A stretch of 64,000 nt of DNA, taken from positions 3,516 to 67,515 of the forward strand of contig JAPJNA010000049.1 of assembly GCA_026461395.1 (NCBI GenBank), given 5' to 3'. This DNA is from Chthoniobacterales bacterium. GTDB lineage: Bacteria; Verrucomicrobiota; Verrucomicrobiia; Chthoniobacterales; UBA6821. The notes below the pieces were generated by a model, which did no database searches, had not been told where the DNA came from, and worked only from the letters and a program-made list of their open reading frames with translations. Position 1 is the stretch's first letter. Every line of letters begins with the position of its first letter. Both the position numbers and the translations under genes were made by a program. Of the stretch, positions 4 through 25,872 are shown piece after piece.

Positions 4-843
4 ATGTCGATCTTGACGCTACCGGAGGTATCGTCCCCCAAGCTTTCTCTCAAGTGGTCAGGGTACTCCGACAGCGGCAACATGAGGTCCAATAACGAAG
101 ATTCTTTCCTCGGACTGGCGATCGATGCAGCGGAAGTGCGTCATCTAGGAAAAGTCGGTACTACAACCCATGCTGAGAACGATCTGCTGTTTGCTGTCAG
201 CGATGGAATGGGTGGCGCGAATGCGGGTGAATTCGCAAGCAGGATCGTTGTTGATAAAATCACCCGGATGCTCCCCCCGCTGATCCGGCAACGAGCCAGC
301 GGCAAGCCAATCGGGTATGAAGGAGCTTTCGAAGCTCTTTTCTCGGAAATCAACAAGGCCCTTCAATATCTGGGCGACAGCTATGAGGAGTGCCGGGGGA
401 TGGGAGCCACCCTCAGCCTCTGCTGGTTTTCCGGCGATACGATGCACTTTGCTCATATCGGTGACACCCGCATCTACTCCCTGTTAAAAGATGGCAAAAT
501 CCTCCAGCTTACCGACGACGACACTCATGTCGGATGGCTGAAGCGCACCGGACAGATCAGTGAACTGGAGGCACGGATGCACCCGGCAAAGAACCGCCTG
601 CAAAAGGCGCTTGGGGCCGGCAATCAATTCGTGAACCCGCAGATCGGCGAGATCGCCTGCCATCCGGGCAACCGCTTCCTCATCTGCTCGGACGGAGTGA
701 CCGATGGACTCTCGGATCAACGAATCGCTGAGGTCTTGAAGGAATGTCCCAAAAATCGCACTCCCGCAGAGTATCTCGTGGTTGAAGCCGTGTCCTCTTC
801 AGGCAAGGATAATGCGACTGCAATGATTGTGACTATTTTATAG
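4..843 (+). CDS. PP2C-family (PrpC/Stp1-like) Ser/Thr protein phosphatase
   Basis: Motifs RSNNED, SDGMGG, HIGDTRIY, ICSDGV, GKDNAT of PPM/PP2C phosphatases. Confidence 0.92.
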   Translation: MSILTLPEVSSPKLSLKWSGYSDSGNMRSNNEDSFLGLAIDAAEVRHLGKVGTTTHAENDLLFAVSDGMGGANAGEFASRIVVDKITRMLPPLIRQRASGKPIGYEGAFEALFSEINKALQYLGDSYEECRGMGATLSLCWFSGDTMHFAHIGDTRIYSLLKDGKILQLTDDDTHVGWLKRTGQISELEARMHPAKNRLQKALGAGNQFVNPQIGEIACHPGNRFLICSDGVTDGLSDQRIAEVLKECPKNRTPAEYLVVEAVSSSGKDNATAMIVTIL

Positions 844-1469: not shown

Positions 1470-1712
1470 TCAGCCCTCGATCGTGTTGATCTCAACCGGC
1501 TCGACCTTCACTCCCAGCTCCTCGAGCCAGGCGATCGATCGCTTGATCTCGCCGCGCTCGCCGATGAGCTCGAGACAGACAAGGCCGATTTCGTTCGTCA
1601 CACTGGCCTGGCGGACATTCGTCGTGACGGAGAATTCGTGTCCCAGTTCGTAAACAAGCGGGCGTGTGATGAGCTTCGCCGGATACATGAGCCAGAGGCG
1701 GGTCGTTTCCAT
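1470..1712 (-). CDS. Stand-alone NIL-domain protein
   Basis: 80 aa, P..YEL..EF.V..N...A.V...G..CLEL.G pattern typical of NIL domains; in operon with moaD-like gene. Confidence 0.75.
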   Translation of the reverse strand: METTRLWLMYPAKLITRPLVYELGHEFSVTTNVRQASVTNEIGLVCLELIGERGEIKRSIAWLEELGVKVEPVEINTIEG

Positions 1713-1775
1713 ATGAAAAAAGATCGGAGGTTAGGGTCGCGAAGGCAAGAGGACTATCGGCAGGGGACTATCGGA

Positions 1776-2048
1776 CTAGCCTCCGGCGATAGCTGGAACG
1801 ATAGAGACGACATCGGCCTCTTGGATCGGGGTCTCTTTTTCCTGAAGGAAGCGGACATCCTCGTCGTTCACAAAGATATTCACGAAGCGACGTATGACGC
1901 CGTTTTCATCGACGATGCGCTCGCTCAGACCTGGATAGGCAGCATTGAGCTCGTCCAGAACGACGCCGAGCGTGGCGCCGGAGACCGTGACCTCCTCGAG
2001 ATTATTGGTTAGCTTGCGGAGTGGAGTGGGGATGCGGACGATTGGCAT
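1776..2048 (-). CDS. MoaD/ThiS/CysO-family ubiquitin-like sulfur carrier
   Basis: 90 aa, V.IPTPLR start, NIFVNDEDVR, C-terminal PAIAGG. Confidence 0.92.
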   Translation of the reverse strand: MPIVRIPTPLRKLTNNLEEVTVSGATLGVVLDELNAAYPGLSERIVDENGVIRRFVNIFVNDEDVRFLQEKETPIQEADVVSIVPAIAGG

Positions 2049-2052
2049 GGGA

Positions 2053-2094
2053 TTAGGTAATAGGGTTTAGGTGATAGGTAATGGGGAGTGAAGG
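2053..2094. repeat. Six degenerate heptamers filling the thrC-like/moaD-like spacer
   Basis: ttaggta atagggt ttaggtg ataggta atgggga gtgaagg. Confidence 0.7.
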
Positions 2095-3351
2095 TTAGTT
2101 TTTTGTCCCGACCTCGTCGGCAACAAGGGCCTCAAACTCGCGAAGGCTCGGTCCGATGACGCGAGGCTCGCCAACCTTGCCGATGATCGCTTCCTGAGTC
2201 TTGAGGCCGTGGCCCGTGATGCAGAGGACAGCGCTCTCATCACTGGGGATTTTGCCAGACTCGATGAGCTTCCTAGCACAGGCGACAGTCACGCCACCGG
2301 CGGTCTCGGCAAAGATCCCAGTGGTCTCGGCCAGGAGCTTGATCCCCTCGACGATCTCCTCATCGGTGCAATCTTCACAGCTTCCACCTGTCTCCTTCAT
2401 GCTCCGGATCGCGTAATACCCATCCGCAGGAGTACCGATGGCAAGTGACTTGGCGATGGTGTCGGGGTTCTGGACCGGCTTGACCATTTCAGTTCCTGCC
2501 TTGAAGGCCGTACTGATGGGTGAGCAACCCGAGGCCTGGGCTCCGTGTATCGAGAAATCGCTCTTTTCCACGATGTCGAGATCGATGAACTCCTTGTAGG
2601 CCTTGTGGAGCTTGGTCAGAAGTGATCCGGAGGCCATGCAGACCACGGTGTGGCGCGGTAGCTTCCAGCCGAGTTGTTCGGCAATCTCAAAGCCCATCGT
2701 CTTGGATCCTTCGGCGTAGTAAGGGCGCAGATTAACATTAACGAATCCCCATCCATACTTACCGGCGATCTCGGAGCAGAGGCGGTTCACTTGGTCATAG
2801 GGGCCCTTGATGCCAATGACATTGGTGCCGTAAACAAGTGATCCCAAGACCTTCCCCTGCTCCAGATTAGAGGGAATGAGGACATAGCTCTTAAGTCCCG
2901 CATTCGCGGCATTGGCTGCGACGGAGTTGGCCAGATTGCCGGTGGAGGCACAGGCAACCACCTTGAAGCCAAGCTCACGGGCCCGGCTCAGAGCCACGGA
3001 GACAACGCGGTCCTTGAAGGAGAGAGTCGGATAGTTGACGGAGTCATTCTTGATCCAGAGTTCGCGGATGCCAAGGGCCTTGGCAAGGCGGTCGGCCTTC
3101 ACCAGCGGGGTGAATCCCACCTGGGTGCCTACCGTCGGCTCGCCATCAATCGGAAGAAGCTCCCGATAGCGCCACATCGTCTGGGGCCGGGACTCAATCA
3201 ACTCACGGGTAAACACCTCGCGGATGGCGTCATAGTCGTACGCTGCCTCGAGAGGGCCAAAGTCGAATTCGCAGATATGGATTGCCTCCTTCTCGTAGAG
3301 GCGTCCGCATTCGCGGCATTTCAAATTACTAAACCAAGGTTTTGTGGACAT
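2095..3351 (-). CDS. Threonine synthase-like PLP enzyme (fold type II), possibly O-phosphohomoserine sulfhydrylase
   Basis: PLP-lysine motif PTLSFKDR, ASTGNLA, N-terminal CxxC; family certain, exact reaction inferred from context. Confidence 0.85.
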   Translation of the reverse strand: MSTKPWFSNLKCRECGRLYEKEAIHICEFDFGPLEAAYDYDAIREVFTRELIESRPQTMWRYRELLPIDGEPTVGTQVGFTPLVKADRLAKALGIRELWIKNDSVNYPTLSFKDRVVSVALSRARELGFKVVACASTGNLANSVAANAANAGLKSYVLIPSNLEQGKVLGSLVYGTNVIGIKGPYDQVNRLCSEIAGKYGWGFVNVNLRPYYAEGSKTMGFEIAEQLGWKLPRHTVVCMASGSLLTKLHKAYKEFIDLDIVEKSDFSIHGAQASGCSPISTAFKAGTEMVKPVQNPDTIAKSLAIGTPADGYYAIRSMKETGGSCEDCTDEEIVEGIKLLAETTGIFAETAGGVTVACARKLIESGKIPSDESAVLCITGHGLKTQEAIIGKVGEPRVIGPSLREFEALVADEVGTKN

Positions 3352-3434
3352 GGGATCTCGTCGTTGTTGCTCAACAAGAGTGACGAAGAGACTTGGTTAT
3401 CCCATCGAGGAGTTCTCGACAGCCGCACCAAGTA

Positions 3435-3547
3435 TCTCATCTTTTCCCCGATTGCTCGGAGCTGGATTTGGCACCTGGGCCTACGAAAAATTCCGCAGCG
3501 GTTGCCGTGACATCAGCGGGCCAGTCCCTCCGTCACTCTTGATAAGA
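3435..3547 (-). promoter_or_regulatory. SAM-I (S-box) riboswitch aptamer
   Basis: Minus strand reads tcttatcaagag..ggagggactggccc..ggcaacc..aggtgccaaatcc..gatgaga, matching the SAM-I consensus; 83 nt upstream of the thrC-like start. Confidence 0.95.
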
Positions 3548-3649: not shown

Positions 3650-3723
3650 GCAGCCATAGCTCAATTGGATAGAGCATCTGACTACGGATCAGAAGGTTTG
3701 AGGTTCGACTCCTCATGGCTGCA
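3650..3723 (+). tRNA. tRNA-Arg (ACG)
   Basis: Acceptor gcagcca/tggctgc, anticodon arm tctga-ctACGga-tcaga, T-loop ggttcgactcc; CCA not encoded. Confidence 0.97.
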
Positions 3724-3734
3724 CTCTTTTTTTA

Positions 3735-4649
3735 TCAGGGTCTCTGAAATGCACCCTTGATCCACCCAGAAAATCGGACGCGTTCCACAAGCGCCATGTG
3801 AGGGACGGTCAGAGCGGCCAGTCCTACAAAAACAATCTGAATCAGGCGTTCATCGAGGGACTTTCCTTTGAGGAACCACCAGGCAAGCGCCGAGACCACG
3901 GCAACGCCGATCATCGGCAGGAGAGCAGAAAGAGCCAGGAGGCGTCTCGAAAGAGATCCCGAGTAGTCGATGGTCCTGAGGATATGGCGAGCGCTGTGCA
4001 TGCCGCAAAAAAAGAGGGTGAATGCGATGAGAGGAGGCGCTGCAACACTTAGCAAAACGACGGAGGCTATCTCCATGGCTCCCAGCCAATCACTCCACGC
4101 AAGCAGGATCACTCCGAGTGCAACGCACGGCAGCCAGATCCAGGCAATCAACTTGATCCATGGCATGAGCAGAAGGGCAGGCTCATTACCCACGAGAAGC
4201 CCAAAAAGTTGCGCCATCTCCTCCGAGTGAAAGAGTGCGGGCAATAGAAGCACGCTTCCCCCATAGAGGATTCGAGTCGCGTGGGGGGTTCCCTCCTCAG
4301 GATCCCCCGAGAAATGGGCCGCTGAGATTAAAAGAAACAAAATCAAAAAACCCATCGGCGCCCACCACCAAACCGCTACAACAACTGCTGCTAGAAGAAG
4401 ATAGATCATGGCAAAAAGCATCCAGTCCGTTGGCTTCCGAAGATCGTAAAGTCTGTAAGCAAAGATCGTGTCGAATGCCCCGTGCGGGACCCCCAGAAGA
4501 AGGATCAAGGTCGCAAGGATGATGAGTCCTGATTGATCGTTACCCCCCCCTTTTTGAGACCCAACCAGTGCGAAAAAAGCCGCCGCTCCAAGCGCGCAGA
4601 GGCTGAACAAAAATCCTTGAATACGGAGCGGGCTCATCAGTTTCATCAT
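3735..4649 (-). CDS. blh: Brp/Blh beta-carotene 15,15'-dioxygenase (retinal synthesis)
   Basis: Membrane protein with GVPHGAFD, AAHF, HSARH, LTVPHM histidine motifs; last gene of the crt cluster. Confidence 0.92.
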   Translation of the reverse strand: MMKLMSPLRIQGFLFSLCALGAAAFFALVGSQKGGGNDQSGLIILATLILLLGVPHGAFDTIFAYRLYDLRKPTDWMLFAMIYLLLAAVVVAVWWWAPMGFLILFLLISAAHFSGDPEEGTPHATRILYGGSVLLLPALFHSEEMAQLFGLLVGNEPALLLMPWIKLIAWIWLPCVALGVILLAWSDWLGAMEIASVVLLSVAAPPLIAFTLFFCGMHSARHILRTIDYSGSLSRRLLALSALLPMIGVAVVSALAWWFLKGKSLDERLIQIVFVGLAALTVPHMALVERVRFSGWIKGAFQRP

Positions 4650-5839
4650 GCCCCCTTTTCTTTTTTCCCTCTTTTTGTTCTATTGCCGTAGGATAACCCA
4701 ACGGTCTTGGCCAATTCGCTCAGAAAAGGCACCGGAGGAAGCGATGCCATGATTGTGAGGCAATCAGCGAGACTCGCGCGATCACTCATAAAGCGGGCTA
4801 CGCGAACCGGGTCCACCTTGGAAAAGAGTGAAAAGAAAAGATCAGGAGCCAGTTCGGGACGGGAGTAAAGCACATGCAGAAAAAGAGCGTCCATGGTGCG
4901 GATGATGGTAGGATCTTGCGGATGGGATATTGGGGGACGGCCCTTTGCCAACACTATGGCGCACTCTTGCGACCACTTCCAGATGCGCTGAAAGGCGTAT
5001 CCACTGCTGGGTCTTGCCCCTCCGGCCATCAGTCCCGCACGGACGTAGCTGGGATCAGTCTGTCGATTTTCAGGAGGTGCCCCCATGGGTAGGATTCCAT
5101 GCTCTTTCCTGCCGCTTGAGTAAGGGCTCCCTTGAAGTCGTTGTTTGACGAGAACGCCGAACGACTCCTCCAAATCCTCTGCTTTCAAAGGCTCCGGTCC
5201 GAAAACCGTAGCCTCCACAAGGGCTTTCTTCTTGGAGAAAGGGAGAACGTATAGGAAGAGGATCCTTTCGGATGAACTTCCAGAAAAATCCATTAGCTCC
5301 GCGCAACCCGGATCAAAGATTTCCTCTTCAGTTGTGATCTCCTCCCCAAGGAACGACTGCCAAAGAAGAGGTTCAAAGTGGCCAAAATGCGGGACCTTGG
5401 GACGAGTATCCACGATCTGTGGGGCCGTGTAGACTCCCATCGGAGTTTCCACATGCCAGAGCCCACCTCTCTTCAAAACCTCACCCGAGACGATGCTTTC
5501 CATCTTCAAATTGATCCGAGAGGACTTGTCAATCACTCCTACTGCAGCCTGGTAGAAGTCTTTGGAGGCGACCATGAGGTAGGGATTTTCTTTGCAGCTG
5601 CGGGTGATGCGATCCTTGGCCGTGGCAATTGAAAAAGATTCCCACCGGTGGGTAGCGAGCTTTTCCGACCCAGACCCAAAACCGCCCCAAAAACACCAGG
5701 TGCGATCATTGGTATATTCCTGCCTGCCCTCGAGAATAAGAGTCCGGAGGCTGGCCTCTCCATAGTTGGCAAGATTCATGCCGAGGCTTAACCCGGCACA
5801 ACCACCCCCCAAGATGATGAGATCGGAGTGATTGCTCAT
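4646..5839 (-). CDS. crtY: Lycopene beta-cyclase
   Basis: GGGCAGLSL FAD motif, DRTWCFW, E.G.LPM, SSGYAF; 4-nt overlaps with both neighbours. Confidence 0.9.
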   Translation of the reverse strand: MSNHSDLIILGGGCAGLSLGMNLANYGEASLRTLILEGRQEYTNDRTWCFWGGFGSGSEKLATHRWESFSIATAKDRITRSCKENPYLMVASKDFYQAAVGVIDKSSRINLKMESIVSGEVLKRGGLWHVETPMGVYTAPQIVDTRPKVPHFGHFEPLLWQSFLGEEITTEEEIFDPGCAELMDFSGSSSERILFLYVLPFSKKKALVEATVFGPEPLKAEDLEESFGVLVKQRLQGSPYSSGRKEHGILPMGAPPENRQTDPSYVRAGLMAGGARPSSGYAFQRIWKWSQECAIVLAKGRPPISHPQDPTIIRTMDALFLHVLYSRPELAPDLFFSLFSKVDPVRVARFMSDRASLADCLTIMASLPPVPFLSELAKTVGLSYGNRTKRGKKEKGA

Positions 5840-6756
5840 GGAGCGATCTCAAGGCCTGCAAGTGCGATGTGGAGTTCCGAGCGGTGAGCGCAGGTAGCAG
5901 ACCAGAACGATCCCTCTCTCGATCCCTTCAGCACGAGGCTCGTGAGAGCCGACACCGTGATAATCGCCTTTTGAGCGGAAGAGACCATCGCCCGTCGGGA
6001 CCAGCAATCTCCCTTGCGTGAAATAAGATCGAGCCCAATGCCTCGATAGACCCTGGAGGCGATCAAGATAGCCCCGCGTGCACGCAAGGGCAGGTAGGAG
6101 AGTCCCTCCTCGCCGCTTCGGTAGTAGTCTTCAGAAAGTCGCAAGAGTTCGAGTACTCCCGAGGCAATCTTAGCGCACACGGCAGAGCTGGGGTTGATCA
6201 ACTCTTGGGCAGAAAGATCTCCTACAAGGGTGCAGGGAAGGTATCGACGGCCCATTGCGCCATCCTCAAGGACATCGCGACAGATATTAGTCAATTGCAT
6301 GGCAATCCCAAGGTCGACGGCATACGGATAGGCTGCTGGGGAGCTGACATCAAGAACACGGCACATCATGAGGCCTACGGTGCCGGCCACGCGGTAGCAG
6401 TAGCGGATGAGTTCATCCACATCAGCGATCCGAACCTCCCCCAGATCCGAGGCGATTCCATTGATAAGTTCAAGAATCGGCTCTTTCGAAATACCACACT
6501 CTCGGGCCAGTGAGAGGCCGTCGCTGAGGGAGGCATCAGCAGATTCACCTCTCTGGACATCTTCCCGTGCCGCTTCGATTTTTGAGCGCGCCTCATGGGG
6601 AGAGGAGGACTCATCGGCAAGATCATCCAAATAGCGACAAAATGCATAAAGCCTTGTTGCTCTCTCCGCATGCCTACTCCCTAAAAAGTGCCGCGCCCAA
6701 TAAAAGCTACGCCCCTTACTGGAGAGCACCTCGTTGGCAGAGGGTGCTAAGATCAT
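5836..6756 (-). CDS. crtB: Phytoene synthase
   Basis: GRSFYWA, YAFCRYLDDLAD, YCYRVAGTVG, MQLTNICRDV; start moved to the ATG at 6756 (gagg upstream, 7 nt after crtI stop). Confidence 0.93.
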   Translation of the reverse strand: MILAPSANEVLSSKGRSFYWARHFLGSRHAERATRLYAFCRYLDDLADESSSPHEARSKIEAAREDVQRGESADASLSDGLSLARECGISKEPILELINGIASDLGEVRIADVDELIRYCYRVAGTVGLMMCRVLDVSSPAAYPYAVDLGIAMQLTNICRDVLEDGAMGRRYLPCTLVGDLSAQELINPSSAVCAKIASGVLELLRLSEDYYRSGEEGLSYLPLRARGAILIASRVYRGIGLDLISRKGDCWSRRAMVSSAQKAIITVSALTSLVLKGSREGSFWSATCAHRSELHIALAGLEIAP

Positions 6757-6763
6757 GCCGGCC

Positions 6764-8248
6764 TCATGCCGGGTTAAAGGCTTCGGCGCGCGGCAGAAGG
6801 GCATCCACCACTTTTGCCGAACAGAGAACCCCGGGCAGTCCAGCACCCGGATGAGTGCCTGCGCCGGTGAGGAAGAGATTCCTGATTCCCTCACCTTTAT
6901 TATGAAAGCGAAACCAAGCAGACTGACGGAAAATGGGGGCGATGGAAAAACCTGCCCCATGGGTACTCAGGTACTCATCGCTAAAATCCTTCGGCGTCTT
7001 GAAAAAATCTGCCCTGATCGTGGAGGAAAGTTCCGGAAGAATCGTCTCCTCCAAGGCCTTGACGATCCGATCCCGAAGTCTTGGTCCCTGGATGCTCCAA
7101 TCGATACCGGACTGCAGATTGGGAACCGGGCAAAGGACATAAAAGCTGTCGCACCCAGGAGGTGCAAAGCTTGGATCCGTGGCTGTCGGACGGTGCAGGT
7201 AGAGCGAAAAGTCATCTGCTAGGATTTTTCGGTCGAAGATATCCTTGAGTAACTCCTGATACCTCGGACCAAGCCAGATCGTGTGGTGGGCGACCTCCGG
7301 ATAGATGCGCGTCGTTCCAAAATAGAGCACAAAGAGTCCCATGGAGTATTTTGCCCCGGCAAGCTTGAGTCGTGAGGAGAGCGCCTGTTTCTTGGAACTG
7401 ATCATGTTGCCGTACAGGTGGGCGGGGTCTGTGTTGGTGACAATGAGGTCAGCCTTGACCATCTCTCCGCCCTCCAAGACTGCACCTGTCGCCTTTCCAC
7501 CCTCCACCACAATCCGCTCGATCGTTGTAACCAGGCGGGTCGAGATCTGTTGTCTCTCCATGAGGCTCCCGAGCGCAGAGGTAATCGCCGCAGTGCCACC
7601 CATCGCAAAATGGACGCCGTGCTTCCTCTCTAAATAATGGATTAGGGAATAAATGCTCGTGGTATCGAAGGGGTTTCCACCAACAAGGAGCGGCTGGATC
7701 GAGAAGGCCTGCCGCAGTTTGGGACTCAAAAGATAATGGCAGACCATTTGCCAGACAGTTTCGTAGTTACGCAGGCGAAGAAGTTTGGGAACCTGCCGTA
7801 CCATGGTTAAGACACGGTGAAAAGATACCGAGGAAAGCTCTTCAAAACCGACTTTGTAAATTTGCTTGGAATGCTCCACAAGGCGCAAATATCCCTCGCG
7901 GTCCTTGGGTTCGATGCGCCCTATTTCTTCCAGAGTCTCCTCGAGCGTCCCGCCATAATCGAAGGTGGTGCCGTCAGAGTATCTGAACCGGTACCACGGT
8001 TTCAGTGGTACAAGTTTCACATGGTCATGGAAGTTCTCCCCAAAGAGTTCAAAAAGCTCCTCAAAAAGAAACGGTGCGGTGATGACCGTGGGACCAGCAT
8101 CGTGACGAAAACCTTCCCTCTCATAAATCTGTGCACGACCTCCGAGCCCCGGGGATCGATCGATCAGGGTTACCTGATATCCTTTTGCCCGGAGCCTGAG
8201 TGCAGCCGCCATGCCCCCATAACCGGCTCCAATAACGAGCGCATGCAT
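6764..8248 (-). CDS. crtI: Phytoene desaturase
   Basis: GAGYGG, DAGPTVIT, QSAWFR, GAGTHPGAGLPGV. Confidence 0.95.
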   Translation of the reverse strand: MHALVIGAGYGGMAAALRLRAKGYQVTLIDRSPGLGGRAQIYEREGFRHDAGPTVITAPFLFEELFELFGENFHDHVKLVPLKPWYRFRYSDGTTFDYGGTLEETLEEIGRIEPKDREGYLRLVEHSKQIYKVGFEELSSVSFHRVLTMVRQVPKLLRLRNYETVWQMVCHYLLSPKLRQAFSIQPLLVGGNPFDTTSIYSLIHYLERKHGVHFAMGGTAAITSALGSLMERQQISTRLVTTIERIVVEGGKATGAVLEGGEMVKADLIVTNTDPAHLYGNMISSKKQALSSRLKLAGAKYSMGLFVLYFGTTRIYPEVAHHTIWLGPRYQELLKDIFDRKILADDFSLYLHRPTATDPSFAPPGCDSFYVLCPVPNLQSGIDWSIQGPRLRDRIVKALEETILPELSSTIRADFFKTPKDFSDEYLSTHGAGFSIAPIFRQSAWFRFHNKGEGIRNLFLTGAGTHPGAGLPGVLCSAKVVDALLPRAEAFNPA

Positions 8249-8261
8249 GGGCGGATAATAA

Positions 8262-9179
8262 TCAGCTCATCGCTTCGAGGCGATGAGAGAGTTCCCGGGC
8301 AATCTCACGGAGTAGCGCTCCAGAGCCATTGGGAAGTGATCCGGCGAGAGATGCCGCTTTAGACAGATGCGCAAGTGCATGACTGCGCGCCTTCTCCGAT
8401 GCCTCGTTGATTGGGCAACCGCTTGCCGCGGCAATCACTAGCAGTGCATTGACGGAAAGGGTCCCGCGATCTTGCTCCACATCCTCCATATCATCGGCGA
8501 TCTGATATCCGATGGCAAAATGCTCAGCGGCACGCCGCGCGTCCTCCGACCACATCCCTTTGGAGGAACCCTTAAGGGCAAGCTCCAGAGGAAGACTCAA
8601 AAGTGCCCCTGACTTGGCGGAGGCGATGGTGTCGTATGCAGCCATGTCGCTCTCTTCATCTCCGATCGGGACTAACCGCGCGCACTGACCCCCTATCACG
8701 ACTGCAATACGAGAGTGAACTAAGGATAGCAACTCGGGAAGCAGAAGCACGTTACTGAATCGTGCAAGGGCTGCATAGGCGGCTGAGAGAAGCAAATCCC
8801 CGGAACACAGGGCGACATGGAAGCCATAGGCTGCGTGGACGGTTTCGACTCCACGCCGGAATTGTTGGCGATCTTCCAGATCATCATGCACAAGAGAAGC
8901 GTTGTGGATGATCTCGACGCATGAGGCAATGGCCACCGAATCCTCAGGCGGAAGCCCAAGGGCACTTCCTGCAGAGAGTGCAAGCCTGGCACGAATACGC
9001 TGACCTCCAGAGGAGAGGTGATAGGACGCGGCGCGGGTTGAGTCCGATCGCCCCTCAATCAATCCCGCCGATCCCGCCGGCGATGCATGAACTACTTCCG
9101 TCATCCTTTCCTCCACCACGCCGAGAAGGGACTCGCCATGGAGTCCTGCTCCTACTCTTATCTTCGGAATCGTGGACAT
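8262..9179 (-). CDS. crtE: Geranylgeranyl diphosphate synthase
   Basis: GGQRIR, HNASLVHDDLED, KSGAL, YQIADDMED aspartate motifs; heads the crt genes. Confidence 0.85.
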   Translation of the reverse strand: MSTIPKIRVGAGLHGESLLGVVEERMTEVVHASPAGSAGLIEGRSDSTRAASYHLSSGGQRIRARLALSAGSALGLPPEDSVAIASCVEIIHNASLVHDDLEDRQQFRRGVETVHAAYGFHVALCSGDLLLSAAYAALARFSNVLLLPELLSLVHSRIAVVIGGQCARLVPIGDEESDMAAYDTIASAKSGALLSLPLELALKGSSKGMWSEDARRAAEHFAIGYQIADDMEDVEQDRGTLSVNALLVIAAASGCPINEASEKARSHALAHLSKAASLAGSLPNGSGALLREIARELSHRLEAMS

Positions 9180-9230
9180 AGTGGTAGACCTAGGCGATAG
9201 TGCCCGAGAACTAACCTTAGTTTATAAAGG

Positions 9231-9262
9231 AAATCCGTGCGCCGAATAAACCGGCGCACGGA
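9231..9262 (-). terminator. Hairpin plus partial U-tract after the rhodopsin gene
   Basis: tccgtgcgccg-aataaac-cggcgcacgga (11-bp perfect stem); minus strand continues tttccttta. Confidence 0.65.
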
Positions 9263-9276
9263 GAAACCCCTAAACG

Positions 9277-10068
9277 TTACTTGGCGTGAGCGTCTGTCTC
9301 AGTGACAGCAGCGGCCCAGATGATGACACCGAAAGCGATTTTGTTGAGCACGTCGGCCAAGTTATAAACAATGTTCAGGCCTTTCATGCTATCGTCGTGG
9401 CTCATACCGGTCAGGTAGCCGACAAAGTAACCGATGGGATAGATCGCCCATCCGAAGGTGACGATCAGACGCATGAGGTTGAACGCCGTCTTGACTGCAG
9501 GAGGCGACTGGTGGGCATTGATGCGGCTGGCCTCGCCGAAGAAAATCTCGAAAAGGATGTAGGCCCAACCGACCATTCCTACAATGAATGCAGGAAGTGC
9601 GGGAACATAACCGGCCTCGCCCACATATCCGCCGACGAGCATGACAAGGGTTCCAATCAGCAAGCGCCAGAAAACGCCTGCGGGAACCTTCGTGATTGCC
9701 GAGAGGATCAGGAAGAACTCCACCATGAGAAGTGGCACAGTGATGAGCCAGTCAATGTAGCGGTAGACGGTCGGGGTGTCGTGGGTGGTTACCCAAACCT
9801 CACGCATGTAGAAGTAGTGAACGGCGGCAACTAAGGTCACGAGTCCGGAGACGGTGAGGGAAGTCTTCCACTTTCCAGAAACTCGTTGGGTTTCGAGGAA
9901 GAAAAACGCGGTGGAAGCGACAAGCGCCATGGAGATCAGCCAGAAAGAAATTCCGACAAAATCATTTGGCTCAAGGACAACTCCTGCGGAGGCCTGAGCT
10001 CTGGCAGGGATGAGGAGAGCCGCAAATGCGAATAGCGATAGTTTGGGGAACAGGGAACGTATCTTCAT
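9277..10068 (-). CDS. Proteorhodopsin (DTE proton pump, green-tuned)
   Basis: RYIDWLITVPLLMVE (D/T/E, Leu at the 105-equivalent), AVHYFYMR His, DVLNKIAFG retinal Lys, N-terminal signal peptide. Confidence 0.96.
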   Translation of the reverse strand: MKIRSLFPKLSLFAFAALLIPARAQASAGVVLEPNDFVGISFWLISMALVASTAFFFLETQRVSGKWKTSLTVSGLVTLVAAVHYFYMREVWVTTHDTPTVYRYIDWLITVPLLMVEFFLILSAITKVPAGVFWRLLIGTLVMLVGGYVGEAGYVPALPAFIVGMVGWAYILFEIFFGEASRINAHQSPPAVKTAFNLMRLIVTFGWAIYPIGYFVGYLTGMSHDDSMKGLNIVYNLADVLNKIAFGVIIWAAAVTETDAHAK

Positions 10069-16977: not shown

Positions 16978-17646
16978 ATGATCCGACTCGTCAAAGCCTC
17001 CCGCTCCTACGGCACACCTCCAGTCACCGCACTCGACTCGGTTTCTCTGGAGATCGGGCGCGGTGAATTCATCGCCATCACCGGGGCCAGCGGTTCGGGC
17101 AAAAGCACGCTGCTGAACCTGCTGGGAGGTCTTGACCACCCCACCTCGGGCGAGGTCATCGTGGATGGGATCCACCTGGAACATGCGAATGACCAAACCC
17201 TGACCCAGTACAGGAGGCTTAAGCTGGGGATCGTCTTCCAGTTCTTCAACCTACTTCCCTCCATGACCGTTGTGGAGAATGTCGAGCTGCCTCTCTTGCT
17301 ACGTGGCGATCCCTCCTCGGGAGTCAGGCAAGCTGCCCTGGCTATGCTCGATCAGGTCGGGATGACTCAGCGTGCCATGCACTTCCCCCACCAGCTCAGC
17401 GGAGGCGAGATGCAGCGGGCTGCCATTGCCAGGGGACTGGTCCATGGCCCCTCCCTCCTGCTGGCGGATGAACCGACGGGGAATCTGGACAGTGAAAACG
17501 CTTCCCAAGTCCTCGATGTGATTGCAAAGATTGCTTCCCGCCGCACCTCCACCGTCATTATGGTAACCCACAGCGATTCGGTGGCGGCCTTGGCCGACCG
17601 GCGTATCAGGATGAAGGATGGACGCATCACTCCGGATGCCACCTGA
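16978..17646 (+). CDS. LolD-like ABC transporter ATP-binding protein
   Basis: GASGSGKST, LSGGEMQR, ADEPTGNLD; start ATG 16978. Confidence 0.9.
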   Translation: MIRLVKASRSYGTPPVTALDSVSLEIGRGEFIAITGASGSGKSTLLNLLGGLDHPTSGEVIVDGIHLEHANDQTLTQYRRLKLGIVFQFFNLLPSMTVVENVELPLLLRGDPSSGVRQAALAMLDQVGMTQRAMHFPHQLSGGEMQRAAIARGLVHGPSLLLADEPTGNLDSENASQVLDVIAKIASRRTSTVIMVTHSDSVAALADRRIRMKDGRITPDAT

Positions 17647-17695
17647 CGCGCCTCTTCATTATCCTCCTAACACCTTAAGACACAGAAGATTTTCC

Positions 17696-19000
17696 ATGGA
17701 ACTCCAGCGCACTCTTGCGAAGTCTGCCAGCCTCACTGGCGCCGCCCTCCACAACGGAGGCAATGTCACCCTGACCATCCATCCGGCTCCAGTCTGCTAC
17801 GGTTATAAATTCCGCCGGTCGGATCTTCCTGATGAGCCGATTGTGGATGCCTTGGTCGAGCATGTGAAGACTGTCGAGCGGTCCACCACACTCGTGCAGG
17901 GAAATGCCAAGATCCAGACCGTCGAGCATGTCCTCTCGGCCTTGGCCGGCCTCGGTGTTGATAATGCCCTCATCGAGATGGACGCGAACGAGCCTCCGAT
18001 TGGCGATGGCAGTGCCGCCCCCTATGTCGCCCTGATCCAGCAGGCAGGCATCATTGACCAGGATGCTGCCCGCTCACCCTTCGAGCTAGGCCAACCGATT
18101 CACCTGGAGACTAGTGGCGGCTCCATCATGTCGGTCTTCCCTCATCCGGGATTCAAGATTTCCTGCACCCAGGCAAATCACGACGGCCGCTTCACCCAAT
18201 ACCTCTCCCTGGAGATCACCCCCGAGGTGTATGCGCGGGAAATCGCCCCCGCGCGCACCTTCGTTCATTACGAGGATGTGAAGGATCTGATGGAAAAGGG
18301 CCTTATCAAGGGTGGCAGTCTGGAGAATGCCCTCGTGATCCGTGGCGAATCAGTTCTCAGTAAAGAACCGCTCCGCTTTCAGGACGAGTTCGTCCGTCAT
18401 AAGATCCTCGATATCATCGGCGATCTGGCACTTGCGGGACGTCCCCTGAGAGGTCACGTCGTCGCCGTCAGGCCCGGCCATGGCCCCAATACAGAACTCG
18501 CGCGCGCCATTGCCAAGCGCCATAGCGACCTTCTGGCCATGGCTCCCACTCCAGTAACCTCGTCGGCACCCGTGATGGATATCAACGAGGTGATGCGTGT
18601 CCTTCCCCACCGCTATCCCTTCTTGATGGTGGACCGTGTCGTGGAATTCGACGGCGACACCAAGGCCGTCGGAGTCAAATGTATCTCGATCAACGAGCCC
18701 TTCTTCCAGGGTCACTTCCCGGGCCACCCAGTCATGCCGGGAGTCCTGCAACTCGAGGCCATGGCCCAGGTCGCCTCGATTGTTATGATGCGCAAGAGCG
18801 AGAATACCGGAAAAATCGGCTACTTCATGAGCGCCGATGAAGTGAAGTTCCGCAAGCCAGTTTTCCCTGGCGACACACTCTTCATTCATGTGGAGATGCT
18901 CAAGGCTCGCAAGAATCTGGGCAAAGCTTCCTGCAAGTGCGTCGTGAACGGCGATGTGGTGAGCGAAGGATCACTCCTCTTTGGCATCATCAACAAATAA
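17696..19000 (+). CDS. lpxC-fabZ: Bifunctional LpxC-FabZ
   Basis: EHVLSAL and HKILD (LpxC) followed by LPHRYPFL and GHFPGHPVMPGVL (FabZ); start ATG 17696. Confidence 0.95.
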   Translation: MELQRTLAKSASLTGAALHNGGNVTLTIHPAPVCYGYKFRRSDLPDEPIVDALVEHVKTVERSTTLVQGNAKIQTVEHVLSALAGLGVDNALIEMDANEPPIGDGSAAPYVALIQQAGIIDQDAARSPFELGQPIHLETSGGSIMSVFPHPGFKISCTQANHDGRFTQYLSLEITPEVYAREIAPARTFVHYEDVKDLMEKGLIKGGSLENALVIRGESVLSKEPLRFQDEFVRHKILDIIGDLALAGRPLRGHVVAVRPGHGPNTELARAIAKRHSDLLAMAPTPVTSSAPVMDINEVMRVLPHRYPFLMVDRVVEFDGDTKAVGVKCISINEPFFQGHFPGHPVMPGVLQLEAMAQVASIVMMRKSENTGKIGYFMSADEVKFRKPVFPGDTLFIHVEMLKARKNLGKASCKCVVNGDVVSEGSLLFGIINK

Positions 19001-19870: not shown

Positions 19871-20692
19871 ATGGCCCGTACTATTCCTCTCGAAGACGGC
19901 TTCACCGACATCATCGGTAAGGCTCAACGCGGACAATCCATCACCGACGAGTCGCTTGCCGGACTCGCCGGAATCAGCCTCTCGGCAATCCAATCCCTCA
20001 AGGCGGGTAATCTCGACGAAGCCACCCTCACGAAGGTGGCGGGAGCCCTGGGGCTGGGTGCCAACGCCCTACTGGCCCTGGCCCGGGGAAGCTATCAACC
20101 CGTGCCGATCACAGCGCCGGAGGGACTCGCTTGCTTCAACACGGACTTCGAGGACATGACGGTGAATTCCTACCTCGTCTGGGATCCCTCCACGCGCGAG
20201 GCCGCCTTCTTCGATACCGGGGCTGACGGCCAACCGATGCTCGATTTCGCGTCTGCCCACAACCTCAAGGTGAAACAGATTTTCATCACCCACATCCACA
20301 CGGATCATATCCTCGACCTCGACAGGCTGATCGAGAAAACCGGCGCGCAGGCCTGGGCCTGCGTGAAGGAGCCGCTGGCGGGAGCCGAGTCGTTCAAGCC
20401 CGGACGCTCCTTCACAATCGGAAACCTCTCCGTTGAGACGCGCGAAACCAGCGGTCATGCCGCGGGTGGCGTGACTTTTGTCGTGGGTGGACTTGTCCAA
20501 CCGGTCGCCATCGTCGGCGACTCGATCTTCGCCGCTTCCATGGGTGGGGGTATGGTCTCCTATGCCGACGCCGCACGAAACAACCGAGAGCAGGTGCTGA
20601 CCCTTCCCGATGCTTCCATCATTTGCTCCGGACACGGTCCCCTTACGACCGTGGGGGAGCAAAAAGTCGCCAATCCGTTTTTCGCGGCCTGA
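19871..20692 (+). CDS. MBL-fold metallo-hydrolase with N-terminal HTH-like region
   Basis: THIHTDH, SGHAAG, GDSIF, GHGP; first ~60 aa resemble an XRE helix-turn-helix. Confidence 0.82.
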   Translation: MARTIPLEDGFTDIIGKAQRGQSITDESLAGLAGISLSAIQSLKAGNLDEATLTKVAGALGLGANALLALARGSYQPVPITAPEGLACFNTDFEDMTVNSYLVWDPSTREAAFFDTGADGQPMLDFASAHNLKVKQIFITHIHTDHILDLDRLIEKTGAQAWACVKEPLAGAESFKPGRSFTIGNLSVETRETSGHAAGGVTFVVGGLVQPVAIVGDSIFAASMGGGMVSYADAARNNREQVLTLPDASIICSGHGPLTTVGEQKVANPFFAA

Positions 20693-23583: not shown

Positions 23584-25872
23584 ATGAGCACCGACCACGC
23601 AACCGCCGCTATCTCCAAACCGCCGACGAAGCTCGACTACAGCCTGACCGGTGAAAACGCCGCCCGCGCCATCGAGCGCGGCCTCGCCGAAGCGGACTGG
23701 TACCAATGCGCCGTTCCCCGGGCGACCATGAGGAAGTTGCTGGAGCGGCGCGACGGACCGGCGATCCGCGACACGCTTCTCTGGTTTGCCCTGATCCTTG
23801 GTGCCGGATACGCCACGTTCGCGCTCTGGGGCACCTGGTGGGCTCTCCTCCCTTACTTAGTGTATGCGGTGCTCTACGCCTCAACCTCCGACTCGCGATG
23901 GCATGAGGCGGGCCATGGCACGGCCTTCAAGACTGACTGGATGAACAATGCCCTCTACGAGATCGCTTCCTTCATGGTCATGCGCGAATCGACCGTCTGG
24001 CGCTGGAGCCATACCCGTCATCACAGCGATACGATCATCGTCGGCCGCGATCCCGAAATCTTGGTTCCGCGCCCACCCGACATCGCCGGGATCATCAAGG
24101 CCTTCTTCCACCTTCCAGTCTATCCGAATTATTTCAAACATATCCTCATGCACGCCTTCGGACGGATGAGCGCCGATGAGAAAACCTACATTCCTGAGAG
24201 CGAGTTTCCCAAGATCTACCGCAAGGCACGGATCTACTTCCTCATCTATGCCTCGGTCATCGCCCTTGCGATAGCGACCCGCAGTATCCTGCCCCTCCTC
24301 TTTGTGGGCCTTGCCAACATGGTAGGATCGTGGCTCATGGTCGTCTACGGTCTGACCCAGCATACTGGCCTCGCGGAGAACGTCCTCGATCACCGCCTGA
24401 ACTGCCGCACCGTCCGGATGAACTTTATCAACCGGTATCTCTACTGGAACATGAACTACCACGTAGAGCACCACATGTTCCCGCTCGTTCCCTATCATGC
24501 GCTCCCGCGCCTCCACGAGGCCGTTAAGGAGGATATGCCTACACCCTACCATAGCCTCCTCCATGCCTGGAGCGAAATCATTCCCTCCGTCCTGCGACAG
24601 GTGAAGGATCCCGCATATCACGTGAAGCGCAAGCTGCCCGAACCGAAGGCGCGTCTGCAGGAGGGCCTCCACGCCAACGAGGCGCAACCGGATGCTGAGG
24701 GGTGGATCGAGGTCTGCTCCGCGCAGGATCTCGGCCCGGCCGACGTGATCCGCTTCGACCACGGCAAGAAGACTTACGCCCTCTACCGGGACGAACATGG
24801 CACGCTCTTCGCAACCGACGGCATCTGCACCCATGGCAACACCCACCTTGCCAACGGCCTCGTCAAGGGATCGATCATCGAGTGTCCGAAGCATAATGGC
24901 CGCTTCAACCTCGCCGACGGATCCCCAGCGCGCCCGCCGATCTGCCGCGGACTGGCCACCTATCCTCTCGAAGAGCGCAACGGACGCCTTCGTCTTAACA
25001 TCGCACAGATCGGGGGTGCCGGTGCCCGCCATCAGAAAAGCTATACCCTGCGCGTCGTCAGCAACCAGAGCGTGGCCACCTTCATCAAGGAACTCGTCCT
25101 CGAACCGGCCGATCCCTCCGAAAAGATCGCCTTCACCCCCGGCGACTACCTCCAGCTCGACATCCCCTCCTATGGGATGATTCGGTTCCGGGAATTCGAT
25201 ATTCCCGAACCGTACGCATCGGTCTGGGAAGCCCAGCACGTCTTCGACCTCGTCGCGCGGAATCCCGAAGGCGGCCGCCGTAACAACTACTCGCTGGCCT
25301 CCAACCAGCAGACTGAGCGGATCCTCCGCTTCAATGTCCGCATTGCCACGCCGCCACCCGGACAGGATTGCCCCCCCGGCGTCGGTTCCGCCTATGTCTT
25401 CAACCTCAAGCCCGGCGACACCGTCACCGCCATCGGCTCCTTCGGCGACTTCCACATCAAGCCTACCCAACGCGAGATGGTCTACATCGGCGGAGGCGCC
25501 GGGATGGCCCCGCTGCGCTCCCATCTCTCTCATCTCTTCGAGACGGAGAAGACTGCACGCAAGGTCAGCTTCTGGTACGGAGCCCGCTCACGCCAAGAGA
25601 TCTACTACAACGAATATTTTGATCAGCTTTCCAGGGAGCACTCGAATTTTAATTTTAACCTCGCCCTCTCCTCTCCTCTTCCCGAGGATGCCTGGAAGGG
25701 ACTGGAGGGCTTCATCCACGAAGTCGTGCTGGAACGCCACCTCAAAGACCATCCCAATCCCAAAGCCGTCGAATACTATCTCTGCGGCCCCCCGATGATG
25801 GTCAAGGCCTGCACCAAGATGCTCGCCGACCTTGGCGTTCCCGCCAACCAGATCGCCTACGACGAGTTTTGA
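23584..25872 (+). CDS. Fusion of membrane di-iron desaturase/oxygenase (MocD-like), Rieske ferredoxin (MocE-like) and NqrF-like FAD/NAD(P)H reductase
   Basis: His boxes H107EAGH, H143TRHH, H293VEHH; Rieske C415-x-H..C434-xx-H; NYSLAS, GGGAGMAP, WYGARS, YYLCGPP. Confidence 0.9.
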   Translation: MSTDHATAAISKPPTKLDYSLTGENAARAIERGLAEADWYQCAVPRATMRKLLERRDGPAIRDTLLWFALILGAGYATFALWGTWWALLPYLVYAVLYASTSDSRWHEAGHGTAFKTDWMNNALYEIASFMVMRESTVWRWSHTRHHSDTIIVGRDPEILVPRPPDIAGIIKAFFHLPVYPNYFKHILMHAFGRMSADEKTYIPESEFPKIYRKARIYFLIYASVIALAIATRSILPLLFVGLANMVGSWLMVVYGLTQHTGLAENVLDHRLNCRTVRMNFINRYLYWNMNYHVEHHMFPLVPYHALPRLHEAVKEDMPTPYHSLLHAWSEIIPSVLRQVKDPAYHVKRKLPEPKARLQEGLHANEAQPDAEGWIEVCSAQDLGPADVIRFDHGKKTYALYRDEHGTLFATDGICTHGNTHLANGLVKGSIIECPKHNGRFNLADGSPARPPICRGLATYPLEERNGRLRLNIAQIGGAGARHQKSYTLRVVSNQSVATFIKELVLEPADPSEKIAFTPGDYLQLDIPSYGMIRFREFDIPEPYASVWEAQHVFDLVARNPEGGRRNNYSLASNQQTERILRFNVRIATPPPGQDCPPGVGSAYVFNLKPGDTVTAIGSFGDFHIKPTQREMVYIGGGAGMAPLRSHLSHLFETEKTARKVSFWYGARSRQEIYYNEYFDQLSREHSNFNFNLALSSPLPEDAWKGLEGFIHEVVLERHLKDHPNPKAVEYYLCGPPMMVKACTKMLADLGVPANQIAYDEF

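Follow-up and report, generated by a model that had tools for sequence, protein, structure and literature searches.

The stretch of DNA analyzed here, 64,000 nucleotides (nt) of contig JAPJNA010000049.1 from a Chthoniobacterales bacterium of the phylum Verrucomicrobiota (positions 3,516 to 67,515; hereafter, the window), carries on its minus strand what is probably an operon for homocysteine formation by the MetM/MetO route, controlled by an S-adenosylmethionine (SAM)-I riboswitch. As judged from sequence comparison, its products would be MetM, a pyridoxal 5′-phosphate (PLP)-dependent paralogue of threonine synthase (ThrC), the sulfur carrier MetO, and a free-standing protein consisting of a NIL domain, which would act as a ligand-binding accessory subunit. 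A preliminary description of this DNA had pointed to a SAM-I riboswitch directly upstream of a co-oriented run of thrC-like, moaD-like, and NIL-only genes; all four elements, namely, the aptamer and the open reading frames (ORFs) for the ThrC-like, ThiS/MoaD-like, and NIL-only proteins, were found there on the minus strand, with matches far beyond chance. Of the span given in that description (1470–3547), the start stands, whereas the end is off by one base, the first base of the aptamer being 3548. The features of the locus are listed below.

3586–3558, minus strand: promoter-like site (TTGACG, 17-nt spacer, AACAAT), a weak match from a consensus scan only, ending about 10 nt before the aptamer
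3548–3434, minus strand: SAM-I riboswitch aptamer (RF00162), full length by the Rfam covariance model
3433–3352, minus strand: expression platform, assigned by folding, with alternative pairings to the aptamer or to the stretch before the AUG
3351–2095, minus strand: metM-like gene for a ThrC-family PLP enzyme of 418 residues (PF00291, TIGR00260, clade motifs)
2048–1776, minus strand: metO-like gene for a ThiS/MoaD-family carrier of 90 residues (PF02597, terminal Gly-Gly)
1712–1470, minus strand: gene for the free-standing NIL-domain protein of 80 residues (PF09383)
1442–990, minus strand: rpiB (ribose-5-phosphate isomerase B), 27 nt downstream of the NIL gene

The enzyme and carrier genes are separated by 46 nt and the carrier and NIL genes by 63 nt, and a site scan of the minus strand found no terminator-like site between the three.

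The MetM-like enzyme, its carrier, and the riboswitch

The riboswitch–metM–metO core is already known, the pathway having been published in 2024, and the NIL component is the new part. The Streptomyces MetM/MetO route that the preliminary description had mentioned does exist: according to the account of Hasebe et al. 2024 (AEM 90:e01247-24) in GapMind 2026 (bioRxiv 10.1101/2024.10.14.618325, Appendix 4), the route in S. albulus consists of four proteins, with MetO as the carrier, Mec as the hydrolase, MoeZ as the ligase, and MetM as a homocysteine synthase that depends on the MetO thiocarboxylate, has homology to ThrC, and is frequently misannotated as ThrC. The S. albulus metM gene has a SAM riboswitch upstream, and the adjoining metO encodes a protein of the sulfur-carrier family (PMC12172450). 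The window shares with this system the SAM riboswitch, followed by a ThrC-like PLP enzyme and then a ThiS/MoaD carrier ending in GG, and the predicted conversion of O-phosphohomoserine to homocysteine through a carrier thiocarboxylate. It differs in the phylum of its host, in a carrier that needs no C-terminal trimming, in the replacement of the fourth zinc-ribbon Cys of the enzyme by Asp, and in the additional co-oriented gene for a free NIL protein, which lies outside the four components (MetO, Mec, MoeZ, and MetM) of the published route as GapMind gives it.

The window enzyme matches PF00291 (PALP) with an E value of 3.1e-68, and its SFKDR motif falls, when aligned, on the lysine that holds PLP in the ThrC structures. 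Enzymes linked to a carrier or NIL gene in Verrucomicrobiota, Dehalococcoidia, Limnocylindrales, Thermodesulfobacteriota, and Nonomuraea were aligned with five crystallized ThrCs; the linked enzymes are 52–83% identical to the window protein and form one clade, the five ThrC structures being 29–37% identical to it. The tree against validated ThrCs that the preliminary description had called for, built by neighbor joining, places the linked enzymes in a monophyletic group apart from the five ThrC structures. Throughout the clade, SFKDRV stands for the SFKDRG of ThrC, STGNLA for STGNT(S/A), N-x-N-x-RPYYAEGSKT for N-SVNPxRxEGQKT, and (M/A)ASGS for the GNAGN loop; the window enzyme, having SFKDRV, STGNLA, RPYYAEGSKT, and ASGS, thus lacks the motifs shared by the ThrC structures. 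Also common to the clade are an N-terminal CxxC...CxxC zinc ribbon, an extension of about 55 residues that is not found in the ThrC structures, an 8-residue insert missing from the four bacterial ThrCs, and a conserved Cys in GC(S/A)P (GCSP in the window, residue 276), where the ThrCs have Ala. In the window and in Terrimicrobium, the fourth Cys of the zinc ribbon (region of residues 12–30) is Asp, with CEFDF for the CEFCF found elsewhere.

An actinomycete member of this clade was found by a tblastn search of a plasmid collection, which matched an 11.85-Mb replicon of Nonomuraea gerenzanensis. There, a SAM-I riboswitch is followed by an enzyme 54.5% identical to that of the window and by a 91-residue carrier ending in AVAGG, and a canonical ThrC is encoded separately in that record, 9.3 Mb from the MetM locus, with 65% identity to the crystallized ThrC of M. 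tuberculosis. The proposal of the preliminary description that the enzyme is a ThrC paralogue forming homocysteine thus appears well founded, in that its clade stands apart from the five crystallized ThrCs and includes an actinomycete riboswitch–enzyme–carrier locus. Judged by its motifs and its position in the tree, the window enzyme falls outside the canonical threonine synthases; homology and context lead us to infer a MetM-type enzyme, a predicted MetO-thiocarboxylate-dependent homocysteine synthase. All public sources label it threonine synthase, NCBIfam has no model specific to the enzyme or to the free NIL protein, and a sequence search of the PDB found no MetM structure. The second PALP genes in the Dehalococcoidia loci were considered as ThrC and rejected, being CysK-like and 18–19% identical to the enzyme. 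In the related locus L008 (4454–5539), the MetM gene call is short (361 residues), with similarity lost after GC(A)P, as from a frameshift or an assembly error.

The carrier matches PF02597 with an E value of 1.9e-16, ends in ...PAIAGG directly before the stop codon, and is 54% identical to the Nonomuraea carrier. Its gene adjoins the enzyme gene in every related Verrucomicrobial, fusion-bearing, and Nonomuraea locus examined. Two related clusters (L092 and L093) contain both E1-type and JAMM genes, and ThiF is encoded in three others (L063, L076, and L080). Protein-thiocarboxylate routes of this kind include CysM/CysO/Mec+ of M. tuberculosis and HcyS/HcyD/HcyF/MetY of Wolinella succinogenes. 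In common with them, the window system would use the thiocarboxylate of a ubiquitin-like carrier as the sulfide donor to a PLP enzyme, with E1 and JAMM present in loci related to that of the window; in contrast to them, its PLP enzyme belongs to the ThrC family, not to CysM or MetY, and the substrate would be a phospho-ester of homoserine. We know of no NIL component described for either system. The operon types of thiocarboxylate carrier systems have been reported (PMC1779556).

The riboswitch aptamer scores 80.2 bits against RF00162 (gathering score, 44.4; E value, 2.8e-17) over model positions 1–108 of 108, and 82 nt separate it from the metM start. SAM-I riboswitches control the supply of methionine and SAM. 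In each of the eight Verrucomicrobial loci examined, with or without NIL, the aptamer precedes the orthologous enzyme gene, as it also does in Nonomuraea (68.7 bits) and in 3 of 80 Dehalococcoidia loci, Rfam being negative for five of the six Dehalococcoidia loci tested. No riboswitch was found beside the NIL genes unlinked to metM–metO (L001–L003) or in L091–L095 by a search model that was built from seven sequences, mostly Verrucomicrobial, and may miss divergent aptamers. In the leader, a 21-nt segment (3390–3370) has almost full complementarity to the aptamer 5′ half (3546–3528). The unconstrained fold of the leader (minimum free energy −84.5 kcal/mol, z −4.6) pairs this segment with the aptamer 5′ half and disrupts the aptamer; in the fold with P1 enforced (−70.7 kcal/mol), 3391–3382 pairs instead with a purine-rich stretch at 3362–3355, 4–11 nt before the AUG. 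Because a site scan found no U-tract terminator in the leader and the pre-AUG stretch is paired when P1 is enforced, folding indicates that the mechanism is likely a SAM-dependent block of translation initiation.

The NIL protein as a partner of carrier-dependent systems

The NIL-only protein matches PF09383 with an E value of 4.6e-10 (39.7 bits against a gathering score of 24); it is free-standing, with 80 residues, and is not MetN, scoring 15.9 bits against the MetN model TIGR02314 (cutoff, 499.7). The free NIL family is small, with 535 representatives (50% clustering) at an E value of 0.001, nearly all of 80–125 residues. Tandem NIL–NIL proteins also occur in the family, which fits a dimeric NIL unit. 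The nearest homologues of both the enzyme and the NIL protein are those of Verrucomicrobiota, from Chthoniobacterales metagenome-assembled genomes, ‘Spartobacteria’, and Terrimicrobium sacchariphilum (85%).

The association of NIL with the enzyme and carrier genes extends well beyond the window. The gene order metM–metO–NIL of the window recurs in L004–L008, of which L008 keeps the trio despite completely different flanks. A genome-contig scan, which used the Dehalococcoidia-type NIL subfamily and covers this one class deeply, returned 80 species genomes; in 71–72 of these, NIL is preceded, at a median distance of 46 nt, by the gene for a MetM homologue that scores 415–535 bits against the window enzyme, and in 26–28, MetO follows NIL directly, so that the order is metM–NIL–metO. 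The Dehalococcoidia clusters have CysE-like and Cys/Met-PLP genes upstream, and genes for a cysteine desulfurase, NifU, ThiF, MOSC, and an AIRS-like protein downstream. In those 29 Dehalococcoidia loci in which the desulfurase gene comes directly after NIL, it often precedes NifU or the AIRS-like gene and MOSC.

Moreover, NIL is found fused to the carrier itself. ThiS–NIL fusions of 171–176 residues, in which an internal ...AIAGG is followed by a short basic linker and then by NIL, form well over 100 clusters at 90% identity in Thermodesulfobacteriota/‘Deltaproteobacteria’ and Limnocylindrales, with a reading frame that is continuous at the DNA level. The AlphaFold model of the fusion consists of two confident, independent domains, the predicted local distance difference test score (pLDDT) falling below 50 exactly at residues 89–95, which comprise the GG and the linker and are accordingly predicted to be flexible. 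The fusion genes adjoin MetM and, in L092–L095, also ThiF, a ThiI-like protein, TusA, and a JAMM protease, a JAMM gene lying near the fusion in Thermodesulfobacteriota. This arrangement resembles the MoaD–MoaE fusion of Deinococcus radiodurans, which has been shown experimentally to be cleaved by a JAMM protease, exposing the carrier glycine (PMC8832034): in the fusions of L092 and L093, the GG of a carrier likewise connects it to a partner domain, and a JAMM gene is close by. The differences are that the fused partner is NIL and not the catalytic MoaE, that cleavage of ThiS–NIL is a prediction, and that carrier and NIL are encoded by separate genes in the window. Three further candidates were rejected: the PALP–NIL ‘fusion’ P0365, whose linker resembles a translated intergenic region before the native NIL start, is a probable read-through artifact; P0264 is a chimeric fragment; and the JAMM–NIL ‘fusion’ P0341 reflects adjacency only, its closest DNA relative (L099, 82% identical) having two ORFs separated by a stop codon and 2 nt.

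NIL does not accompany the route everywhere. A tblastn search with NIL gave no match in the plasmid collection, the Nonomuraea replicon included, and the 15-kb Nonomuraea locus likewise yielded none; in genomes of the Terrimicrobium type and in some others of Verrucomicrobiota, no NIL gene adjoins metM–metO. At the position of NIL in the Terrimicrobium-type loci, directly after metO, lies a 148-residue ORF (L009, 9633–10079; L010; L098, 6633–7079), which has no match to Pfam, NIL, or MetO profiles. The lack of a NIL match in the Nonomuraea record and the absence of NIL from the published scheme both suit an accessory role better than a catalytic one. On comparative-genomic evidence, NIL is thus a genuine functional partner of the carrier-dependent machinery, as its frequent but dispensable accessory, and appears as a recurrent, so far undescribed partner of the MetM/MetO route in several bacterial phyla. 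The suggestion of the preliminary description that a free NIL subunit would be the added element is borne out to this extent: the protein lies outside the published four-protein scheme, yet is linked or fused to MetM, MetO, or JAMM genes in several phyla. Full-text literature searches found no paper linking the NIL domain to thiocarboxylate, MoaD, sulfur carriers, JAMM, or threonine synthase, and Iyer et al. 2006 make no mention of NIL.

As to the function of the NIL protein, its family profile detects the C2 domain of E. coli MetN in its isolated form (3dhx) with an E value of 2.6e-11, and its AlphaFold model (pLDDT 92.6), of the fold β-α-β-β-α-β, superposes on MetN C2 with template modeling (TM) scores of 0.77–0.84, root-mean-square deviations of 1.1–2.1 Å, and 28% identity, the best match being 3tui (TM 0.84, 1.1 Å). 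After MetN C2, regulatory domains of the ACT-like and NikR types give the best fold matches. The methionine site of MetN spans the C2 dimer; L-methionine is hydrogen-bonded there by N295, whose mutation to Ala abolishes binding, and A299 is located on the dimer strand (PMC6233128). N32 and A36 of the window NIL protein align with these two residues, and the conservation of each across the free NIL family is 90% or higher. Thus, fold, profile match, and the equivalents of N295 and A299 are all retained from the MetN C2 domain, from which the window protein differs in having no ATPase, in T31, R34, and the acidic tail, which are specific to its family, and in having an enzyme/carrier system, not a transporter, as its partner. 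Within the tail (residues 71–80, xEPxExxxxEG), the acidic residues E71, E74, and E79 are invariant across free and fused NIL, and disorder is predicted for the region (residues 78–80 having pLDDT values below 50), which suggests a partner-binding tail.

A NIL domain dedicated to non-canonical homocysteine synthesis has a precedent in the NIL-ferredoxin protein of the MA1822 type, which is required for the DUF39 route from aspartate semialdehyde to homocysteine (PMC5764234), and some databases name free NIL proteins after it. In contrast to that protein, the window NIL has no ferredoxin domain, cysteine motif, or DUF39/COG2122 partner (the annotated ORFs of the window contain no DUF39 protein), and the route would proceed via O-phosphohomoserine. 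From structure prediction and residue conservation, the NIL protein most probably serves as an accessory subunit and binds methionine or homocysteine. The proposal of the preliminary description that NIL would sense methionine is in keeping with the C2-like fold and the retained equivalents of N295 and A299.

Working model and alternative explanations

In the working model, the locus would be a SAM-I-riboswitch-controlled metM–metO–NIL operon of a Verrucomicrobiota bacterium. MetM, the threonine synthase paralogue, would take O-phosphohomoserine and replace its γ-phosphate by sulfur, arriving as the C-terminal thiocarboxylate of MetO, to yield homocysteine. At high SAM, the aptamer would close, the segment downstream of it would pair with the stretch before the start codon, and the operon would be turned off. 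The NIL protein would be a dimeric methionine/homocysteine-binding subunit that tunes the carrier, JAMM, or MetM steps, like ACT-type regulatory subunits. We also put forward, tentatively, a more specific role that is possible, if rather doubtful: a C2-like NIL dimer with bound methionine or homocysteine may gate the JAMM processing of a MetO–NIL precursor and/or the release of the product from MetO, providing end-product feedback on a ubiquitin-like carrier cycle on top of the SAM riboswitch.

Several observations weigh against this model and bear on the alternatives to it. The relation of the window enzyme to the characterized S. albulus MetM is indirect, the clade membership being established through the Nonomuraea locus as an actinomycete proxy. 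An E1 protein (MoeZ/ThiF), JAMM, homoserine kinase (thrB), and a second thrC are all missing from the 64-kb window, in whose annotation there is likewise no second PALP gene or metX/Y/B; beyond position 20000, the scan covered mainly ORFs of about 230 residues or more, so that a small JAMM could be missed. T31, R34, and the conserved acidic tail of NIL are family-specific and have no counterpart in MetN, so that the ligand may not be methionine. In 29 Dehalococcoidia loci (of L011–L090, e.g., L013, 4725–7411), NIL is followed by a cysteine desulfurase gene at a median gap of 3 nt, with no adjacent carrier. The locus L099 (3374–6713) encodes Rrf2, a CysK/M-like PALP enzyme, phosphoadenosine phosphosulfate (PAPS) reductase, ThiS, JAMM, and, 2 nt after JAMM, NIL, with no MetM, so NIL may serve a cysteine-type carrier system too. 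Finally, several Verrucomicrobiota carry a NIL gene (75–79% identical) that is unlinked to metM–metO and has no riboswitch.

A serious rival, unlikely on balance, assigns NIL to sulfur transfer, as a structural adaptor or receptor that docks or protects the carrier tail, as MoaE does for MoaD, or bridges a cysteine desulfurase or JAMM to MetM. The fusion of NIL directly behind the carrier GG is in its favor, the fused domain in MoaD–MoaE being the physical partner of the carrier, as are the adjacency to JAMM in L099, the translational coupling to the desulfurase in the 29 carrier-less Dehalococcoidia loci, the NIL domain in the NIL-ferredoxin of the DUF39 route (PMC5764234), and the family-specific R34 and flexible acidic C-terminal tail, which resemble a partner-binding feature. 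However, the alignment of the free NIL family contains no conserved cysteine, and therefore NIL cannot itself carry a persulfide or other sulfur; the methionine-contacting Asn of MetN is kept; and NIL, undetected in an actinomycete record that has the pathway and outside the published scheme, is not needed for the chemistry. A ligand-binding accessory subunit remains our preferred assignment. That NIL is instead a chance neighbor in the lineage of the window, with a function unrelated to MetM/MetO, is very improbable. In Terrimicrobiaceae and other Verrucomicrobiota, NIL does lie beside genes for a mechanosensitive channel, YceI, STAS, or FAD oxidase, with metM–metO there having no NIL, but the conservation of the trio in L008 amid other flanks, the adjacency to MetM, in another gene order, in 71–72 of the 80 Dehalococcoidia genomes, and the wide occurrence of ThiS–NIL fusions argue against coincidence.

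The identity of the enzyme reaction has also to be weighed. The least probable of the readings, in our view, is that the PLP enzyme is an ordinary threonine synthase with unrelated carrier and NIL genes as neighbors, even though sequence models alone would name it ThrC, since it scores 275 bits against the TIGR00260 thrC equivalog (cutoff, 167), in line with its label in the public sources. Its gene is under a SAM riboswitch, not a threonine signal; motifs that are identical in the four bacterial ThrC structures are changed (SFKDRV, ASGS, and RPYYAEGSKT); adjacency to a GG-ended carrier is kept across phyla; and GapMind warns explicitly of the misannotation of MetM as ThrC. It is quite improbable, too, that the enzyme applies the carrier thiocarboxylate or free sulfide to another substrate, such as O-phosphoserine, to produce cysteine or another thio-amino acid. 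M. tuberculosis CysM/CysO/Mec is a mechanistic template for such a reaction, L099 has NIL clustered with a CysK/M-like enzyme, PAPS reductase, ThiS, and JAMM, and CysE-like and Cys/Met-PLP genes occur together with MetM in the Dehalococcoidia loci. On the other hand, SAM-I riboswitches govern methionine and SAM supply, and the family of the enzyme is that of the phosphohomoserine-binding ThrC, not CysK/CysM, the identity of the enzyme to the CysK-like paralogues being as low as stated above. The published MetM reaction, as given in GapMind, yields homocysteine.

Neighboring genes and implications

The gene downstream of NIL, rpiB, is possibly co-transcribed with it. Among the relatives, a peptidase gene intervenes between the two in L005 and L006, and rpiB is absent in L008; because its position thus varies, rpiB is not counted in the module. 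Beside it lies a gene for a PP2C-type protein phosphatase (4–843, plus strand), and the PP2C/rpiB neighborhood is kept in L004–L006. On the other side of the locus, a tRNA-Arg (ACG) gene (3650–3724, plus strand) is located between the carotenoid cluster and the riboswitch promoter, and in L004 and L007, too, this tRNA gene neighbors the riboswitch. A retinal photosystem cluster (3735–10068, minus strand) immediately upstream of the riboswitch has genes for blh (β-carotene dioxygenase), a lycopene-cyclase-like protein, crtB, crtI, a polyprenyl synthase, and a rhodopsin that carries the DTE proton-pump motif (RYIDWLITVPLLMVEF). Apart from this rhodopsin/carotenoid cluster, the remainder of the window consists of housekeeping genes. 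Two of its ORFs encode fused proteins: LpxC joined to a FabA/FabZ-like dehydratase (460 residues, 17618–19000) and a fatty-acid desaturase joined to Rieske and NAD-binding reductase domains (762 residues, 23584–25872).

The clade signature of the enzyme would correct ‘threonine synthase’ labels, and the methionine-pathway reconstructions, in Verrucomicrobiota, Dehalococcoidia, Thermodesulfobacteriota, and others. A fifth component, which is gene-linked or even joined to the carrier in one protein, suggests that the four-protein MetM/MetO route has a further level, regulatory or for docking, that is as yet unstudied. With it, the methionine-related settings of the NIL domain, so far MetN and the DUF39 system, would number three, which points to a common ligand-binding role.

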